This document shows positions 9,733 to 55,468 of a stretch of DNA of 64,000 nucleotides, piece by piece (within the stretch, counting starts at the first letter, position 1; every line of letters starts with the position of its first letter). The position numbers and the translations under genes were made by a program. Source of the stretch: Candidatus Daviesbacteria bacterium (lineage in GTDB: Bacteria > Patescibacteriota > Microgenomatia > Daviesbacterales > UBA10151); assembly GCA_016176335.1 (NCBI GenBank), contig JACOXI010000003.1, positions 194,477 to 258,476 on the forward strand, read 5' to 3'. The notes below the pieces were generated by a model. It worked only from the letters and a program-made list of their open reading frames with translations, made no database searches and was not told the origin of the DNA.

Positions 9733-9970
9733 ACCTTTATTCTAACAGTTTAGGATATAAAAGAATTAGCAAAAAACTTATGACCAGAGCTGAGAAAAAT
9801 GGGATTTTAATAAAAACACCCTTTTTATCAAGGTTAATATCCCAAGGCAAACGGGGAAACTTGGGAATAATATTCTCTACCAAACTCATTAAAAGAAAAA
9901 CCGTAAAGAAAACAATAAATTCCTTTCATACTGTTTTATTATAAATTGACTGTTACTTAATTAAAATACT

Positions 9971-11344
9971 ATGATTAAGTTAATGTCCTTTTACCTAAAG
10001 GCTCTGTTTGCTTTCACAGCAATCATGCTTTTTCTTCACCCAGCCCCTGTTTTTGCCCAAGCAGGGGGAGGGGGACCAGCCGGGATACCCCTGATTGAGT
10101 ATATATTTGCCAGAATAGTTTGTGTGGCTGTCCCTCTGGGGTATACAGCATTGCTGGTAGTTTTAGTATTTGCTGGAATTAAGTATTTAATCTCCGCGGG
10201 TGAGGCTAAAGCTGTTCAAGCTGCCCATCAAACAGTCACCTGGGGACTATTGGGAATATTATTCCTGACTATAGCCTGGTTAATCCTGCTGCTGATTCAA
10301 AACTTTACAGGAGTAAAAGTGACACAGTTTACCCTATCCTCATTACCTGGTGTACAGGGTTTTACTGGATCATGCTGGGCACCGGCACCAGTTGCCCCTG
10401 AACCACCGCCATCTCTTATGCAAACCACCCCTGCTAGCAACCTGATATCCCTTCCTCAAGATAAGCCGCTAGCTGCCGTTATTTTTGTTCGTGAATGTAG
10501 ACACTTACAAAATTTTATTAGAGCCAGTCATGTTATGCAGCCTCTTCTTCCAGCAGACCCTCTTAGGTTATTATATAACTCCCCTGCCGGAAACCCCTAT
10601 CCTAATTATGTAAACCCTAATCCGGATGATCCAGAATTGGCAGATCTTTTTGATGAAAATAAGGATGTACCAAAAGAGTGGCTTCATAATATTGCAATAG
10701 ATGCTTTATTAGTAATACCACCATGGTTTAGTGTCGGATATGAAATTGATGTTCCAAAAACAGTCACAAAGCTTCCCCTTAAAATAGCTTATATGCGTGA
10801 TTTCTCTCCTGTTGCTCCTCAATACGACAGATTTATTGGATATACCAGCCTAACGAGAGGGTATTTCCCACCAGATTATCCGGATGAATTGTTCTGGCAC
10901 TTCTATAACCTCGGCGGGACTAGTCACTTAATAAAAGTACCTGATGACCCTGATAGGCTACCTGAGCGGTTCAAAGAAAATCCTCCTCAAAGGATGCACC
11001 ATTATTTTTACAGGAGTAGTTACGGGTTTTGGATGGTTCCTAAGAATCGCCAAAGCGAAGTAAAAGACTCACCTTTTGTGGACGTCTCTCCTTGGGGATA
11101 TCTTACATCTGATAAAACTGTTGCACTATACAAAAGAGATGTAATCCCAGAACAGAGGATTCCTTTGGAATATGCAAATCATTTACCCTTTGGGCTGACC
11201 TTTGATCCAGAAGAAGCACTCAGGCTAATGGATGATACAACGAAGTCTAAGAGCGGGGGGTGGGGAACTTATTCATTTCCATCTATTATTTCTTGTCCGG
11301 AGGGTGAGATTTGGCAATTTCCAGTAAATATTCATGGATCCTAA
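9971..11344 (+). CDS. secreted protein with TrbC/VirB2-pilin-like N-terminal hydrophobic hairpin and a 330-aa Pro-rich C-terminal domain
   Basis: Sec signal ending VFAQA. Gly run, then two hydrophobic helices (IVCVAVPLGYTALLVVLVFAGIKYL ... GLLGILFLTIAWLILLLI) separated by a short polar loop, the arrangement seen in VirB2/TrbC pilins. The rest is unknown. Confidence 0.45.
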   Translation: MIKLMSFYLKALFAFTAIMLFLHPAPVFAQAGGGGPAGIPLIEYIFARIVCVAVPLGYTALLVVLVFAGIKYLISAGEAKAVQAAHQTVTWGLLGILFLTIAWLILLLIQNFTGVKVTQFTLSSLPGVQGFTGSCWAPAPVAPEPPPSLMQTTPASNLISLPQDKPLAAVIFVRECRHLQNFIRASHVMQPLLPADPLRLLYNSPAGNPYPNYVNPNPDDPELADLFDENKDVPKEWLHNIAIDALLVIPPWFSVGYEIDVPKTVTKLPLKIAYMRDFSPVAPQYDRFIGYTSLTRGYFPPDYPDELFWHFYNLGGTSHLIKVPDDPDRLPERFKENPPQRMHHYFYRSSYGFWMVPKNRQSEVKDSPFVDVSPWGYLTSDKTVALYKRDVIPEQRIPLEYANHLPFGLTFDPEEALRLMDDTTKSKSGGWGTYSFPSIISCPEGEIWQFPVNIHGS

Positions 11345-48820: not shown

Positions 48821-49081
48821 ATGTCTGTAGAGAACGTTGATAAAAATCCTTCAGGTCGATTAGGTCCAGCAACTCTAAGAGAACTGGTGGGAGATCTTAG
48901 TGATCATGATAGGCATCATGAAGCTACAGATAGAATAGAAGCCTTGGTAAGAATGGGTCCATCATTAGGTACTTTAGTTAGGGGGTTATCATTAGAGCCA
49001 TCTCTTCCTGGACGTTCTTCGCGTTCATATCACAGGTCCAGAGGCCGAAGAAGGTTTTCTGCACCAGGATTTGACTTTTAG
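48821..49081 (+). CDS. unassigned 86-aa ORF (low-complexity, Arg/Ser-rich); may instead be non-coding
   Basis: Open frame only; no family resemblance. Followed by a strong intrinsic terminator. Confidence 0.2.
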   Translation: MSVENVDKNPSGRLGPATLRELVGDLSDHDRHHEATDRIEALVRMGPSLGTLVRGLSLEPSLPGRSSRSYHRSRGRRRFSAPGFDF

Positions 49082-49160: not shown

Positions 49161-49382
49161 ATGGAGAAAAAGTTGAGGAAAGAAAAATTGAAGATGTGGA
49201 GAGAAAACCTCCAAAAATTAGAGGAGCAACTTGCTGCTGTGCAGCTTAAAAAAGGTGCTGCTGCGCAAGAGGGAGATCTGTCCGAAAATGCAGCCTACAT
49301 TATGGCAATTGAGGATGCCGAGACCTTGCGGGTACAAATTGAACAGGTGAAAAAAATAATTCAAGAATTGGAGGAAGGGTAA
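49161..49382 (+). CDS. GreA/GreB N-terminal coiled-coil domain-only protein (73 aa)
   Basis: LQKLEEQLAAV...GDLSENAAYIMAIEDAETLRVQIEQVKKII matches the Gre N-terminal coiled-coil (GDLxENAEY signature); no C-terminal FKBP-like domain encoded. Confidence 0.55.
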   Translation: MEKKLRKEKLKMWRENLQKLEEQLAAVQLKKGAAAQEGDLSENAAYIMAIEDAETLRVQIEQVKKIIQELEEG

Positions 49383-49453: not shown

Positions 49454-51616
49454 ATGCCAGTTCAAAAGACCAAACGGGATTTTCCGTTAGATCGCATACG
49501 CAATATAGGCATTATTGCCCATATTGATGCAGGGAAAACCACTACAACCGAGCGAATCCTCTTTTATACAGGCAGATCATACAAAATCGGAAATATTGAT
49601 GAAGGCACAACAGTGACTGACTGGATGGAGCAGGAAAGGGAGAGAGGAATTACTATTGTTTCTGCTGCTGTCACCACTTTTTGGACAGTTAAATCTGGTC
49701 TTTTTGAAGGAACTGAAACAAGAATTAATTTAATTGATACTCCCGGACACGTTGATTTTACGGCAGAAGTTGAAAGATCTTTGCGAGTATTGGATGGAGC
49801 AGTAATTGTTTTGGATAGCTCTTCCGGTGTGCAATCTCAAACCGAGACTGTTTGGAGGCAGGCCAATAAATACAGTGTGCCCCTTATTGCCTTTGCCAAC
49901 AAAATGGATGTGGTGGGTGCGGATTTTGCCGCTACTATTCAATCTGCCAGAGACAGGTTAGGTGCAAATGCTGTTGCTTACAATTTACCCATGGGAAAAG
50001 AGAATGATTTTAAAGGAGTAGTAGATCTTTTAACTGAAAAAGCAATAATTTGGGAAGGTGATCCCTCGACTCCGCTCGGGACAAGTGATACCGGTGCCAA
50101 ATTTACCGAAGTAGCAATACCTGCTGATATGGTGGATCAAGTTAAAGAGGCCCGTGAGAAGTTGGTGGAAGAGATTTCAGGGACAGATGATGTGTTAATG
50201 GAAAAATACTTGGCTGCAGAGGAAATCAGCATCGATGAACTCAAAAAGGCTTTGAGAAAAGCAGTTATTGATAATAAAATTGTGCCTGTTTTGGCAGGAT
50301 CATCTTTGCGCAACAAAGGCGTTCAACCTATGCTTGATTCAGTGGTAGAGTATCTGCCATCCCCACAAGATATTGGGCAAGTGTCGGGCCAAAACCCTCA
50401 AACAGGTGAGATGGTTATACGTAAAGCTGATCCCCTCGCTCCCTTATCTGCTTTGGCTTTTAAGATTCAGGTTGATCCGCACGTTGGAAAACTTACTTAT
50501 ATTAGGGTTTACTCTGGAACTTTAAAAAGTGGTTCTTATGTTTACAACTCCACTAAGCAAATTAAGGAAAGAGTCGGCAGACTACTCTTGATGCATGCCA
50601 ATGACCGGGAAGAGATTGAGGAAGCTTATGCAGGGGAAATTGTGGCTGCAGTAGGACTTAAGGATACTATCACCGGAGATACACTTTGTGATGAGATTGC
50701 TCCTATTATTTTAGAATCCATCTCATTTCCTGATCCGGTTATTTCCTTGGCCATTGAGCCGAAAACAAAATCCGATCAGGAAAAATTAGGCTATGCTTTA
50801 CAAAGACTGGCAGAGGAAGATCCAACCTTCAGAATAAAGAGCGATCCTGAAACAGCCCAGACTATTATTGCCGGAATGGGGGAATTACAGCTGGAGATTT
50901 TAGTGGAGCGAATGAGGAGGGAGTTTAAAGTGGATGCCAATGTTGGCCAGCCTCAGGTTGCCTATAAAGAAACCATTACTAAAATGGCAGAGGGAGAAGG
51001 TAAGTATATCAGGCAAACTGGTGGTCGGGGTCAATATGGTCACTGTCTTTTAAGAATTGAGCCTTTGCCTCGTGGACAAGGAAGAGAATTTGTTTCCGAA
51101 ATTACTGGCGGAGCAATACCACGGGAGTTTATTTCTCCCATTGAAAAAGGTGTTATTGAGAAAGAAGATACCGGAATTTTGGCAGGATACCCGTTAACAG
51201 ATATTAAGGTGGCAGTATACGATGGATCTTTTCATGATGTTGATTCATCAGAGGTGGCATTTAAAATTGCCGCTTCTTTAGGTTTGTCTGAAGCTGCCAA
51301 AAAAGCAGATATGATTTTGCTCGAACCTATCATGAAGGTTGAGGTGACAACCCCGGATGAGTTTATGGGGGATATTATCGGTGATCTATCTTCCAAAAGA
51401 GCCCAAATTTTGGGATCGGAAAAGCGGGGAAATTATACCATCATTAATGCTTTGGTACCCTTGGCAGAGATGCACGGATACGCAACAGCTCTTCGCAGTA
51501 TGTCCCAAGGTCGAGCCGGCTACTATATGGAGGCTGATCACTACGAACCGGTACCAGCCCAAATCACTGCCAAAATAGTTGAATCCTCTGGATTTACAGG
51601 CCGTGTTGAGCATTAG
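49454..51616 (+). CDS. fusA: translation elongation factor G
   Basis: [21 protein letters not shown] motifs; domains I-V of EF-G; 720 aa. Confidence 0.97.
50060..50083. repeat. fusA copy of the 24-nt DPSTxLGT-coding repeat (see 13267-13290)
   Basis: 23/24 identical to the grpE copy. Confidence 0.7.
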
Positions 51617-51681
51617 AATTATTACGGGGAGTAAAATATTTGCTGATTTTTTGGCGGATATCTGGGAATCAAATATCTGTT

Positions 51682-51710
51682 TTGACAAAGCGTACGGAAA
51701 AGCGTACACT
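51682..51710 (+). promoter_or_regulatory. yefM promoter with candidate antitoxin operator: TTGACA-17-TACACT overlapping direct repeat AGCGTAC-N5-AGCGTAC (GTAC cores 12 bp apart)
   Basis: CGTACG (51691-51696) and CGTACA (51703-51708) centres are 12 bp apart, inside the spacer and -10 of the promoter; ATG 9 nt after the -10 (near-leaderless). Confidence 0.5.
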
Positions 51711-51718
51711 GCTTTTAT

Positions 51719-52042
51719 ATGACCACAGTTTCTGTAACTCAAGCCCGTGCCAATTTATACGATCTTATTGATAAGGTTTCTACGTCTGGTAAACCAGTTG
51801 GAATTACCAATAAAGGTCAAACAAAAGCTATTTTAATTTCTCCGGAAGAGTTAAGATCTTGGGAGGTAACCATGGAAGTTATGAATGATAAAGAGTTGAT
51901 GGAGCAAATCAGAGAAAGTAAGAAAGATATTAAAGCTGGGAGGATTTACTCACTTGATGAAGTAGAAAAGGAGTTAAGATCAGTAAGGGATGTATCAGGT
52001 AAACCTATCAAATCAGGCAAGAAAAAGTCTAAAAAAGCTTGA
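51719..52042 (+). CDS. yefM: type II antitoxin, Phd/YefM family
   Basis: MTTVSVTQARANLYDLIDKV...KPVGITNKGQTKAILISPEELRSWEVTME closely resembles YefM/Phd; followed by a toxin ORF. Confidence 0.8.
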   Translation: MTTVSVTQARANLYDLIDKVSTSGKPVGITNKGQTKAILISPEELRSWEVTMEVMNDKELMEQIRESKKDIKAGRIYSLDEVEKELRSVRDVSGKPIKSGKKKSKKA

Positions 52043-52241
52043 TTATAAATTCCAAGATAAAGTATTGAAATCCCTGAGACTACTTGAGGTTGATCCATTT
52101 CTGGGTGAAAAAATGGGTGGACAATTCAAAGGATCTTTCCGAATTAAGATTCCGCCTTTGAGAATAATTTATACTCCGGATTTTAGTCGGAAGATAATTT
52201 TAGTTGAGGCTATCGGCCACAAAGGAGATATCTACAAATAA
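51990..52241 (+). CDS. type II toxin, RelE/ParE superfamily (YoeB/Txe-like)
   Basis: MYQVNLSNQARKSLKKLDYKFQDKVLKSL...FRIKIPPLRIIYTPDFSRKIILVEAIGHKGDIY matches RelE/ParE fold signature; overlaps the antitoxin 3' end by 53 nt in another frame. Confidence 0.75.
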   Translation: MYQVNLSNQARKSLKKLDYKFQDKVLKSLRLLEVDPFLGEKMGGQFKGSFRIKIPPLRIIYTPDFSRKIILVEAIGHKGDIYK

Positions 52242-52325
52242 ATATTTTCTGTTGCCAGGATCCAGATGGCAACATCTTCGGCCTCTTGAAATCCAGTGAT
52301 TTTTATTAGAAAATAGATTTATCCT

Positions 52326-53483
52326 TTAATTTGAAGGCATTTTTTTACTTTTTTCTATAATAGCCGCAACACGAACTATAAAATCTTGGACATCAAGGAA
52401 GAAATTAGGATATGCTCTTTTTAAAGAATTTATATCACCTGCAGATACAAGAACAGGTTCTATTTTCTCACCATTAGCTACCCTAGCTTCAGCCTCAGTA
52501 TAGTCCTCGGAGGCTTTCTTAATGTTGTCCTTTGCGTAAGATGTTATTCTAACCTTTTTTTCTAAAGAATTTAAGATAATTAAATGGTAATAAGAACCCT
52601 TTCCTTTTTTATCTGCAATGATTTTCAAAGCAAATTTATAGCTCTCCATAGCATTTAATGCTCTAATATCTTCAGCAATATGAGCAACAGCATCAAAAGT
52701 TTCTTTTTTGTCCATTTTATTATATTTTGAGATTCTAGGCGTACCTTCAATATAAGCAAATGCTGAAGATGTAATAGCAAAAAAGTCGCGCCACTTTTTT
52801 TCTCCCTCTCCAGATTTAAGTGCCTGTCCGAGATAAGTTCCCATTGTTTCAACAGCGGTAGCCCATGCGTGTTGTAGCTTTGTCCTAATTTGTAGTTCTA
52901 ATAAGAGTCCATTATATTCTGGTTTAATTTTATTTTTATACCTATAGACTAAATGTACGCTACGATATCCATCCTCTTTTGGATTCTGAATATAATCATC
53001 CGTTCGAACCAATCTATGCTGAAACTTTTTATCCATAAGATATATCGATTCGAGTTGGGTAACATCTTTGATAGATTTAACAACTGCTCTTAAACCACCT
53101 ATGTCCTGCATTCTAGCAAGTTTCATACCTCTGAATCTTCTCAATTTATCAATTATTGTGGACATACGTTTTAAACGCTGAGCTACAATTGCATTTGATT
53201 TCAATCTCCTCAATCTGGTTCTTAATGTAGCTTGAAAAGTATTCATTGGGTAACCATGACAAGCGCGCCAATTACTTAGAACATCGAGAGCATGATTAAA
53301 TTGTTCTTGGTCATTAGATTTACGACTGATTAAGATATCGCCTGCTCTATCTACTGCGGAATTTGAATAATCGGGTTGTGGAAATACCATAGCGGTTATT
53401 ATACAAATATCCCAGAAATAATCAAAAGACACCTTGGCTACGAAAGATTTTAAAACGTTTTTACCTCTTGCATAATCAGGCAA
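52326..53483 (-). CDS. RelA/SpoT-domain nucleotidyltransferase (small alarmone synthetase fold; toxSAS/CapRel-like architecture with 150-aa C-terminal extension)
   Basis: Synthetase motifs DIGGLRAVV, DGYRSVHLVY, ELQIRTKLQHAWA present. No synthetase-partner hydrolase domain. About 150 aa of unknown C-terminal domain. Start may be the internal MVFPQP at 53388-53390. Confidence 0.8.
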   Translation of the reverse strand: MPDYARGKNVLKSFVAKVSFDYFWDICIITAMVFPQPDYSNSAVDRAGDILISRKSNDQEQFNHALDVLSNWRACHGYPMNTFQATLRTRLRRLKSNAIVAQRLKRMSTIIDKLRRFRGMKLARMQDIGGLRAVVKSIKDVTQLESIYLMDKKFQHRLVRTDDYIQNPKEDGYRSVHLVYRYKNKIKPEYNGLLLELQIRTKLQHAWATAVETMGTYLGQALKSGEGEKKWRDFFAITSSAFAYIEGTPRISKYNKMDKKETFDAVAHIAEDIRALNAMESYKFALKIIADKKGKGSYYHLIILNSLEKKVRITSYAKDNIKKASEDYTEAEARVANGEKIEPVLVSAGDINSLKRAYPNFFLDVQDFIVRVAAIIEKSKKMPSN

Positions 53484-53592
53484 ATTATTGTATATTTATA
53501 TCTGTTACCAGCTTAAGGGGCTGGTATTTAATTGTCATTTGTCATATTGAGTCTGGACAAGATGAGATGGATAATGATAAAATAACAAAATT

Positions 53593-54777
53593 ATGGCTGA
53601 ACAGAAAAAGTTTGACAGAAGTAAACCCCACGTAAATATTGGTACCATGGGTCATGTTGACCATGGTAAAACCACTCTTACTGCAGCTATTACCAAAGTT
53701 TTAGCTGGCAAAGGTCTGGCTGAAGCTCGCTCTGTTGACCAAATTGACAATGCTCCTGAAGAAAAAGCCCGCGGTATCACCATCAATATCTCCCACCAGG
53801 AATACGAAACCGAAAAAAGACATTATGCTCATATAGACATGCCTGGTCACGCAGACTATATTAAGAACATGATTACCGGCGCCGCACAAACAGATGGCGC
53901 CATTTTAGTTGTTTCCGCGCCTGACGGCCCAATGCCGCAAACCAGAGAACATTTGCTTTTGGCAAGACAAGTAGGAGTTCCAGCAATTGTAGTATTTTTG
54001 AACAAAGTTGATATGGTTGATGATGCGGAACTGCTGGATTTGGTGGAAGAAGAAGTCCGGGATCTTTTGAAAAAATATGAATATGATCCGCAGTCACCTA
54101 TTATTCGCGGTTCTGCTAAAAAAGCTTTGGAAGGTGATGCGGAGGCTGTGAAGGCTGTTGAAGAACTTATGGCCAAGGTGGATGAATGGATTCCAACACC
54201 GGTCAGAGATGTGGAGAAACCATTTTTGATGGCTGTTGAGGATGTTTTCTCCATCAAAGGCAGAGGAACTGTGGTAACCGGAAGAATTGAAAGAGGCAAG
54301 GTTAAAGTTAATGAGGAAATTGAAATTGTGGGGATTAGACCTACCAAAAAGAGTGTGGTGACGGGAATTGAGATGTTTCACAAAATGTTGGATGAAGGAC
54401 AAGCCGGAGATAATGCCGGCATACTGCTTCGAGGTATTGAGAAAGATGATGTGGAAAGAGGTCAGGTTTTGGCCAAACCCTCCTCAATCACTCCTCATGC
54501 CGAATTTGAAGCAGAAGTTTATATTTTATCTAAGGAAGAGGGCGGAAGGCACACGCCTTTCTTCAAAGGTTACAGACCACAATTTTATATCAGGACCACA
54601 GATGTAACAGGTGAGGTACAACTGCCGGAAGGTGTGGAGATGGCCATGCCGGGAGACACGGTTAAAGTTACCGGTAAATTAATTACACCGGTTGCTATGG
54701 AAGATGGTTTAAGGTTTGCTGTCCGCGAAGGTGGTAAAACTGTTGGAGCTGGGGTAATTACGAAAATTATTGCTTAA
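53593..54777 (+). CDS. tuf: translation elongation factor Tu
   Basis: 394 aa; [22 protein letters not shown]; full EF-Tu conservation. Confidence 0.98.
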
Positions 54778-55192: not shown

Positions 55193-55468
55193 TCAGATAC
55201 CATCTAAAAGATTCTTAAATGCTGGGTTAATGGTTTTTATAAGTGCCATTTTCCTTTTTCTTGTCCAACCCTTTATTTTCTTCTCTGCGTTTATGGCGTC
55301 CATAACTTGGTCAAATTCTTGATAATAAACTAACTTATTTATATTGTATTTACTTGTAAAGTGATATTTCTTTATTCTATGTTCATGTATCCGACGCTCT
55401 AAATTGTTAGTTACTCCCACATAAAGAGTATTGGATTTATTTGTTAGGATATAAACATAATAAGACAT
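55193..55468 (-). CDS. GIY-YIG nuclease family protein (YhbQ/UPF0213-like, 91 aa)
   Basis: YYVYILTNKSNTLYVGVTNNLERRIHEH = GIY-YIG core with conserved Arg/Glu; reverse strand inside the S10 operon. Confidence 0.8.
   Translation of the reverse strand: MSYYVYILTNKSNTLYVGVTNNLERRIHEHRIKKYHFTSKYNINKLVYYQEFDQVMDAINAEKKIKGWTRKRKMALIKTINPAFKNLLDGI

Follow-up and report, generated by a model that had tools for sequence, protein, structure and literature searches.

Two toxin modules, yefM-relE and a fused CapRel-type gene, in the fusA-tuf spacer of a Candidatus Daviesbacteria genome

In this study, we analysed the spacer between fusA and tuf (positions 51617-53592) in a 64,000-nucleotide stretch of Candidatus Daviesbacteria DNA (assembly GCA_016176335.1, contig JACOXI010000003.1, positions 194,477 to 258,476), hereafter called the window. 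The gap measures 1,976 bp, and the listing of open reading frames (ORFs) of the window places three ORFs inside it. An earlier note on this DNA had described them as a Phd/YefM antitoxin gene, an overlapping RelE/ParE toxin gene and, convergent with these, a gene for a CapRel-like toxic small alarmone synthetase (toxSAS), and these identities were borne out by Pfam, PADLOC, and PDB comparisons. The spacer probably consists of two independent, self-contained modules, an autoregulated yefM-relE pair and a fused CapRel gene with its own promoter. The picture of a single 2-kb islet inserted as a unit, which the same note had drawn, did not survive comparison with related genomes, because yefM-relE occurs at this position in other lineages and CapRel alone is specific to this genome at this locus.

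Identity of the minus-strand gene

The assignment of the minus-strand gene (52326-53390) as a full-length fused CapRel is strongly supported by PADLOC and PDB matches, by a predicted structure and by residue mapping. Its product matches the PADLOC model PDC-S33 at 2.2e-126 (420 bits) over profile positions 1-343 of 349. Residues 15-362 of CapRelSJ46, rebuilt from the PDB alignment, match this model alone (1.2e-84, 283 bits), and PDC-S33 is therefore the fused CapRel family. In a phmmer search, the window protein aligned with CapRelSJ46 (PDB 7ZTB and 9ERV) at 1e-37 along chain residues 14-361/362, which covers both domains, whereas small alarmone synthetase (SAS) enzymes aligned by sequence over only about 115 residues at ~1e-12. 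The assignment of this gene to defence in the earlier note thus stands.

The ORF that the note had reported spans 52326-53483 and encodes 385 amino acids from a TTG codon; an ATG at 53390 gives 354 amino acids. Its position and identity were confirmed, but not its length, since translation most likely starts at the ATG. Two points favour the ATG: the first residue of the TTG-extended ORF matched by the PADLOC profile is residue 32, and the extension would enter the conserved promoter block of tuf described below. Gene calls made independently are split, with 354 aa on some contigs and 385 aa on others; on these three grounds, the longer form was rejected. The Pfam RelA_SpoT domain (4e-20) covers residues 102-212 of the 385-aa ORF, and the 354-aa numbering is used hereafter.

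The protein is predicted to comprise an N-terminal toxSYNTH domain, a pseudo-ZFD at about residues 251-318 and a YPNF neutralisation motif at 327-330. The residues reported as functionally critical in CapRelSJ46, namely A77, R79, R116, Y155, V338, L339, A351, and Y352 (PMC9712102), correspond to A70, R72, R101, Y142, V313, L314, A326, and Y327 in the window protein. The first four lie in the toxSYNTH domain, with Y142 in the G-loop. Across 52 homologues, every mapped residue except F330, and including S316, shows no or almost no variation, and the consensus of the motif is AYPNFF. Conservation amounts to 0.62 in the catalytic core and 0.64 in the YPNF anchor vs 0.47 in the pseudo-ZFD, and a core more conserved than the pseudo-ZFD has been reported for CapRel.

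An AlphaFold2 (AF2) model built on the homologue alignment reached a predicted local distance difference test (pLDDT) score of 89.4 and a predicted template modelling (pTM) score of 0.87. Its C-terminal domain is predicted to adopt a beta-beta-beta-alpha-beta order (strands 256-260, 267-274, and 279-286, helix 287-305, strand 311-316) followed by terminal helices. A Foldseek search of the PDB with this model placed 7ZTB and 9ERV on top over about 365 columns (template modelling score 0.64-0.69); SAS enzymes ranked far lower and were aligned over the N-terminal half alone. The accompanying root-mean-square deviation of about 10 Å would fit a domain orientation in the model other than the open crystal form.

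A promoter-like site for this gene, TTGATT-16-TATAAT (53398-53425, minus strand), was called by consensus match only (10/12 positions), with 7 nt between the end of its -10 element and the ATG at 53390; the promoter-scan total for the region is not enriched over shuffled sequences.

CapRel homologues number more than 5,200 at <=1e-10 and are distributed across phyla. Those with 50-57% identity occur in Nitrospirota, Syntrophobacterales, and Patescibacteria. The nearest homologues with usable context (66-68%) are at unrelated loci (beside greA, within a resolvase/HTH region and close to a DUF5615 gene); in no case do they adjoin yefM-relE or lie between fusA and tuf. A 74% homologue is located on a short contig beside an unrelated gene. 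The family is also present on phage SJ46 (29% identity) and in 96 plasmid records (>=80% coverage). Among the clade lineages compared, CapRel is found between fusA and tuf in this genome only. Homology with the related locus L173 downstream of relE stops near 52290, which bounds the CapRel cassette to about 52295-53460. We infer from this distribution that CapRel is mobile cargo that reached its position between relE and the tuf promoter later, by horizontal transfer.

The yefM-relE pair and the tuf promoter

The two plus-strand genes form a toxin-antitoxin (TA) module. The 107-aa antitoxin (51719-52042) belongs to the Phd/YefM family (Pfam PF02604 PhdYeFM_antitox, 6e-16, above the cut-off) and matches the RelB, Rv2865, RelJ, and YefM antitoxins in the PDB at 7e-9 to 7e-3. 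The 83-aa toxin (51990-52241) is a member of the RelE/ParE superfamily (Pfam PF05016 ParE_toxin, 3e-9, 37.8 bits vs a cut-off of 23). When aligned to the E. coli RelE sequence, toxin residues R51, K53, R58, K78, and Y82 fall on K52, K54, R61, R81, and Y87, the catalytic positions of RelE. The toxin and four orthologues retain R/K51, K53, R58, K/R78, and Y82, with R58 and Y82 invariant in the five. This set of residues favours an mRNA interferase rather than a ParE-type gyrase poison, but the toxin stays under the NCBIfam cut-off for RelE_StbE.

The C-terminal tail of the antitoxin, about 20 Lys-rich residues, lies inside the toxin gene, giving an overlap of 53 nt. Antitoxin homologues of 102-111 aa span the whole query, and the overlap measures 44-62 nt at three other loci; since the long antitoxin form and the overlap are kept in homologues, the 53-nt overlap is not a frameshift artefact.

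A promoter-operator (51682-51710) precedes the pair. TTGACA at 51682-51687 is followed by two GCGTAC repeats (51690-51695 and 51702-51707) 12 bp apart, and the -10-like TACACT (51705-51710) ends 8 nt before the ATG; the promoter matches the consensus at 10/12 positions. The repeats resemble the GTAC-core operators of E. coli yefM-yoeB. The block TTGACA..CGTACG..GCGTA is kept in six loci, and the sequence further upstream is unalignable. Because conservation ends at 51682, we set the left edge of the module there. Conservation of the promoter-operator argues that yefM-relE is expressed and autoregulated. The -10-like boxes of both yefM and CapRel end close to the ATG (8 and 7 nt, respectively) with no Shine-Dalgarno sequence between (51705-51721 and 53388-53403), and the two mRNAs may be leaderless.

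At its 3' end, the module is followed by a tail (52242-52290) with a hairpin TGTTGCCA..TGGCAACA (52250-52274), and the segment GGCAACATCTTCG[G/T]CCTC downstream of relE is common to the window and L173. The hairpin between relE and CapRel was considered as a bidirectional terminator and set aside, as its fold is no better than that of shuffled sequences (z -0.6 and 0.0). No PADLOC model matched the YefM or RelE proteins, a result that is uninformative on a defence role either way.

On the right side of the spacer, tuf is preceded by a conserved promoter-like block with a leader hairpin (53463-53530). The block contains TTGCAT (53468-53473), a 17-nt spacer and TATATT (53491-53496), then the hairpin TACCAGCTTAAGGGCTGG; in the window, the leader hairpin TACCAGCTTAAGGGGCTGGTA occupies 53506-53526. 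Block and hairpin are kept in six Daviesbacteria loci regardless of the preceding gene. This suggests that tuf is transcribed from a promoter of its own and that two transcription units meet in the spacer, which would tolerate cargo because the tuf promoter is separate and conserved. The tuf leader (53495-53592) has a folding energy of -25.8 kcal/mol (z -3.9) and matches no Rfam family; an Rfam search of 51400-53800 returned nothing above the gathering score. The segment 53463-53592 may be an undescribed tuf/S10-operon leader element of this clade.

The fusA-tuf spacer in related genomes

The distance from fusA to tuf was measured over 160 EF-G loci from reference genomes and metagenomes. It is 32-374 bp in 29 named loci outside the Candidate Phyla Radiation (CPR). 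Of 25 named CPR loci, 19 have a gap of 270 bp or more and 13 one of 545 bp or more, with an upper value of 4.5 kb; in several CPR loci, tuf does not occur within 6 kb of fusA. Cargo in CPR spacers is heterogeneous and includes genes for DUF3105, 23S-IVS, HNH homing endonuclease, Bro-N, NUDIX, APH, and subtilase proteins, methyltransferases, and Phd-like genes. From genome loci L012-L083 and metagenome loci L086-L165, a disrupted fusA-tuf junction looks common across Patescibacteria.

The Daviesbacteria clade comprises seven lineages with a mutual EF-G identity of at least 77%, and every spacer in it measures 2 kb to more than 6 kb with differing cargo. The EF-G of the window is 89, 85, 85, 81, 78, and 78% identical to those of L086, L087, L173, L179, L006, and L088, respectively, and its Tuf is 89-96% identical to Tuf of the relatives. 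The window spacer carries yefM-relE and then CapRel. The spacer of L086 encodes a 115-aa ORF, a DUF433/DUF5615 PIN-like pair and gpsA, and that of L087 a 338-aa ORF and gpsA. L173/174 (85%) have a 201-aa ORF, yefM-relE and a 74-aa ORF with a PIN-domain protein, and L176-179 (77-81%) a 176-aa ORF, yefM-relE and, in the slot of CapRel, a 390-aa minus-strand membrane protein. L006 has a histidine kinase, a DUF6259 protein, yefM-relE and an IS200-like gene; this locus was followed 6 kb downstream of fusA, and tuf was not located in that span. In L088, the spacer encodes an SPFH protein and one of 919 aa. No homologues of relatives' cargo, for example gpsA or the proteins of 115, 201, and 390 aa, are present in the window. 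In outgroups at 64-69% EF-G identity, the junction measures 31-99 bp or about 1.1-1.2 kb. The landing pad proposed in the earlier note can thus be kept in a broader form, that of a spacer with 2 to >6 kb of differing cargo in 7/7 clade members and an expanded gap in many CPR. The relatives compared did not all carry the same three genes, an arrangement that the note had named as evidence against its reading.

TA modules recur in this slot. L086, the closest locus by EF-G, encodes a different predicted TA pair in the same spacer (DUF433 with a DUF5615/PIN-like protein, 9752-10349, minus strand), and in L173 a PIN-domain protein follows relE.

The yefM-relE pair is also present at the fusA-tuf position in L172 (a short contig), L173/174, L176-179, and L006, with YefM 60-83% identical to that of the window. 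It is missing in L086, L087, and L088, which interleave with the carriers on a neighbour-joining (NJ) tree of EF-G. YefM identity to the window (83, 65, 61, and 60%) drops in step with EF-G identity. The pair is probably ancestral to the clade, a polarity that is slightly favoured because three losses are more parsimonious than four gains at one site.

Within the window, the spacer lies between the 720-aa ORF of fusA (EF-G, 49454-51616, plus strand) and the 394-aa ORF of tuf (EF-Tu, 53593-54777, plus strand). The arrangement is not an assembly artefact, since six Logan contigs from two run series (SRR43434xx and SRR121134xx) match the window at 100% identity across the islet; the exact EF-G and YefM proteins of the window are likewise present on Logan contigs of the two series. 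Contig L170 (SRR12113385) was first read as a 96%-identical strain variant whose identical islet hinted at recombination, and this reading was dropped. All of its 67 differences fall within bases 1-300, which are about 22% diverged from the window fusA, whereas its other 1,450 bp match the window at 100% identity. The contig is most likely chimeric at this end, with the join in a conserved stretch of fusA, and it calls for caution in strain-level inference from such contigs.

GC content drops from 0.42-0.44 in the flanks to 0.32-0.37 within the islet. The islet as a whole (0.344 vs 0.396 for the window) lies at the 0.5th percentile among equal-sized windows and its tetranucleotide distance at the 96.5th. 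The compositional check suggested in the earlier note therefore gave a mixed answer, as the islet is low in GC and atypical in tetranucleotides, but other stretches of the window are equally low in GC. Two-kilobase windows below 0.37 GC also occur at about 16.4-20.5, 30.8-36.2, and 37.1-41.3 kb and may be further accessory regions. The marks of an integrated mobile island, a recombinase and flanking direct repeats, were not found at the islet: the ORF list and Pfam revealed no integrase, recombinase or transposase ORF in 51617-53592, and a search for flanking direct or inverted repeats as insertion scars gave only chance-level matches of <=16 nt. No tRNA gene is present anywhere in the window.

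Two neighbouring genes had been regarded in the earlier note as further insertions, but neither is recent, as both turned out to be present at the same places in relatives. A GreA_GreB_N-only protein of 73 aa (49161-49382, plus strand) lies directly upstream of fusA, and this GreA_N mini-gene occupies the same place in L006, L086, L087, L173, and L176 (51-71% identity); the ORF at 48821-49081 has no Pfam match. A 91-aa GIY-YIG protein (55193-55468, minus strand) is encoded between rpsJ (S10) and rplC (L3). Its gene is located at the same position in L176/L179 (77% identity); L087 lacks it and has a gap of about 200 bp between S10 and L3. The GIY-YIG gene is a variable insertion in the ribosomal protein operon and is not window-specific.

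Proposed model and comparison with known systems

We propose a model built on the observed gene identities, residue conservation, synteny, and conserved promoter blocks; the biochemical activities, what triggers them and which way the genes were gained or lost are predictions. A YefM dimer would bind the paired GCGTAC operators, which overlap its own promoter. Upon antitoxin depletion, the RelE-type toxin would cleave mRNA on the ribosome, an activity expected because the RelE catalytic constellation appears to be kept. In this clade, the pair would have occupied the spacer for a long time. CapRel would be a single-gene fused toxin-antitoxin transcribed divergently from tuf. In its resting state, the pseudo-ZFD would fold back so that the YPNF motif plugs the ATP site. 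A phage protein, which in the model system is the major capsid protein, would bind the pseudo-ZFD and release the block. By homology to CapRelSJ46, toxSYNTH would then pyrophosphorylate the 3' CCA ends of tRNA with ATP, translation would halt and the infection would be aborted.

Several observations weigh against this reading. The promoters are consensus or conservation calls rather than mapped transcription start sites. The PDB matches of the toxin are weak (1e-3 for 2KHE, a Thermus RelE-like protein, and ~0.1 for YoeB and Rv2866), and NCBIfam TIGR02385 RelE_StbE scored 4e-5 and 24 bits, under its cut-off of 27.9. Identity to CapRelSJ46 is only 27-29%, and the substrate could therefore differ, being either tRNA or ATP/GTP for alarmone synthesis. 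Throughout the subfamily of the window protein, the YXXY motif has Phe in place of its second Tyr (Y355F, F330), and Ser replaces A341 (S316). Both changes are conservative. Mutation of either position to a dissimilar residue renders CapRelSJ46 constitutively toxic (PMC9712102), and details of the autoinhibition may therefore differ. Finally, three losses and four gains of yefM-relE are nearly tied, and the EF-G NJ tree lacks support values.

The RelA_SpoT synthetase domain would also be expected of a housekeeping SAS of the RelQ/RelP type that makes (p)ppGpp for the stringent response and is co-regulated near translation genes, and coupling to growth rate would fit a gene that lies in the fusA-tuf spacer and diverges from the tuf promoter. 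The YjbM/RelQ and RelP structures (3e-12) and the NCBIfam YjbM model are indeed matched, although weakly. The score against the YjbM equivalog is 60 bits vs a cut-off of 320, and SAS similarity is confined to some 115 residues, or to the N-terminal half by fold, whereas CapRel matches both domains and accounts for the antitoxin-like C-terminus and the neutralisation motif. A housekeeping role is also hard to reconcile with the absence of the gene from the fusA-tuf locus in all six related lineages and with a patchy family carried on plasmids and a phage, which makes this explanation very unlikely. The modules could be selfish or decaying passengers, addiction remnants on neutral ground, given that the cargo of relatives is mixed and much of it not defence-related (gpsA, the histidine kinase, the SPFH protein, and membrane proteins) and that yefM-relE is missing in 3 of 7 lineages. 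Decay is, however, at odds with the intact state of all islet ORFs, the retention of catalytic and interface residues, the conservation of the yefM promoter-operator amid unalignable flanking DNA and the identity of the islet in samples of two run series; we consider this reading unlikely.

The three genes could also act as one tripartite system, for instance with YefM/RelE regulating or backing up CapRel, and move jointly as a 2-kb islet. They are adjacent, convergent and uniformly low in GC (0.34-0.36), and all three target or relate to translation. Joint movement is contradicted by the occurrence of yefM-relE at this position without CapRel in at least four lineages and of the nearest CapRel homologues without yefM-relE, and the islet is devoid of an integrase, a transposase and flanking repeats. 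Each module has a separate promoter-like site, and fused CapRel is self-sufficient in the model system (PMC9712102). A tripartite system is thus extremely improbable. The reading as two independent modules remains the one that we prefer.

A wider view, which we advance tentatively, is that the fusA-tuf junction is a long-lived, promoter-insulated hotspot in Daviesbacteria and apparently in many CPR, with a vertically inherited yefM-relE anchor and translation-targeting toxins and defence genes swapped alongside it; under this view, CapRel would function as an abortive-infection system, a tRNA pyrophosphokinase, in an ultra-small and probably episymbiotic bacterium. If this view is true, the junction would offer a defined locus for tracking the turnover of CPR defences. 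The str/S10 super-operon of this clade appears to be split by the conserved tuf promoter and the gap to have turned into a variable slot, and the spacer can serve as a fixed reference point against which gains and losses of TA and defence genes are traced across CPR genomes. A groundwater defensome survey reported few defence systems per CPR genome but a high density of them (PMC12259885).

The closest known counterpart of the minus-strand gene is CapRelSJ46 from Salmonella phage SJ46 (Zhang et al., Nature 2022, PMC9712102; PDB 7ZTB and 9ERV). Both are single ORFs of about 350-370 aa recognised by the same PADLOC model, with a toxSYNTH domain that has the G-loop Tyr and both adenine-coordinating Arg residues, a pseudo-ZFD-like sheet-plus-helix domain with anchor helices, an A-Y-P-N motif, a V-L interface and a more variable C-terminal domain. 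The window protein differs in its low identity, in YPNF in place of YPNY and in the Ser at A341. Its gene is chromosomal in Patescibacteria, between fusA and tuf, rather than prophage-borne. What has been characterised of CapRel-type immunity comes from Enterobacteria and their phages, and this intact, high-confidence member extends the family to ultra-small uncultured bacteria with sparse and poorly known defences. Within the searchable library, our literature search found no paper mentioning both CapRel and Patescibacteria, nor any on "PDC-S33".

The yefM-relE pair is comparable to RelBE2 (Rv2865/Rv2866, PDB 3G5O) and RelJK (Rv3357) of M. tuberculosis and to E. coli YefM-YoeB, in which the antitoxin gene likewise comes first and the genes overlap, a Phd/YefM fold is combined with a toxin of the RelE/ParE superfamily, and paired GTAC-containing repeats overlap the promoter. 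It departs from them in the Lys-rich tail of about 20 aa inside the toxin gene, with its 53-nt overlap kept in the subfamily, and in the weak similarity of the toxin (E 1e-3 to 0.1).

Enterobacteria, Pseudomonas, and Vibrio are known to have variable or defence hotspots that lie between conserved core genes. The fusA-tuf spacer resembles these hotspots in its fixed flanks, its differing cargo and its enrichment in TA and defence genes (yefM-relE, the PIN-domain pair, DUF433/DUF5615, and CapRel). It is unlike them in having fusA and tuf as flanks, in that no integrase or att-like repeats were found and in carrying housekeeping-type cargo such as gpsA. Neither membership in the CapRel family nor the spacer context alters the understanding of how such systems work. 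Both modules belong to known families, and what sets this locus apart is descriptive, namely a variable slot at a normally tight junction.

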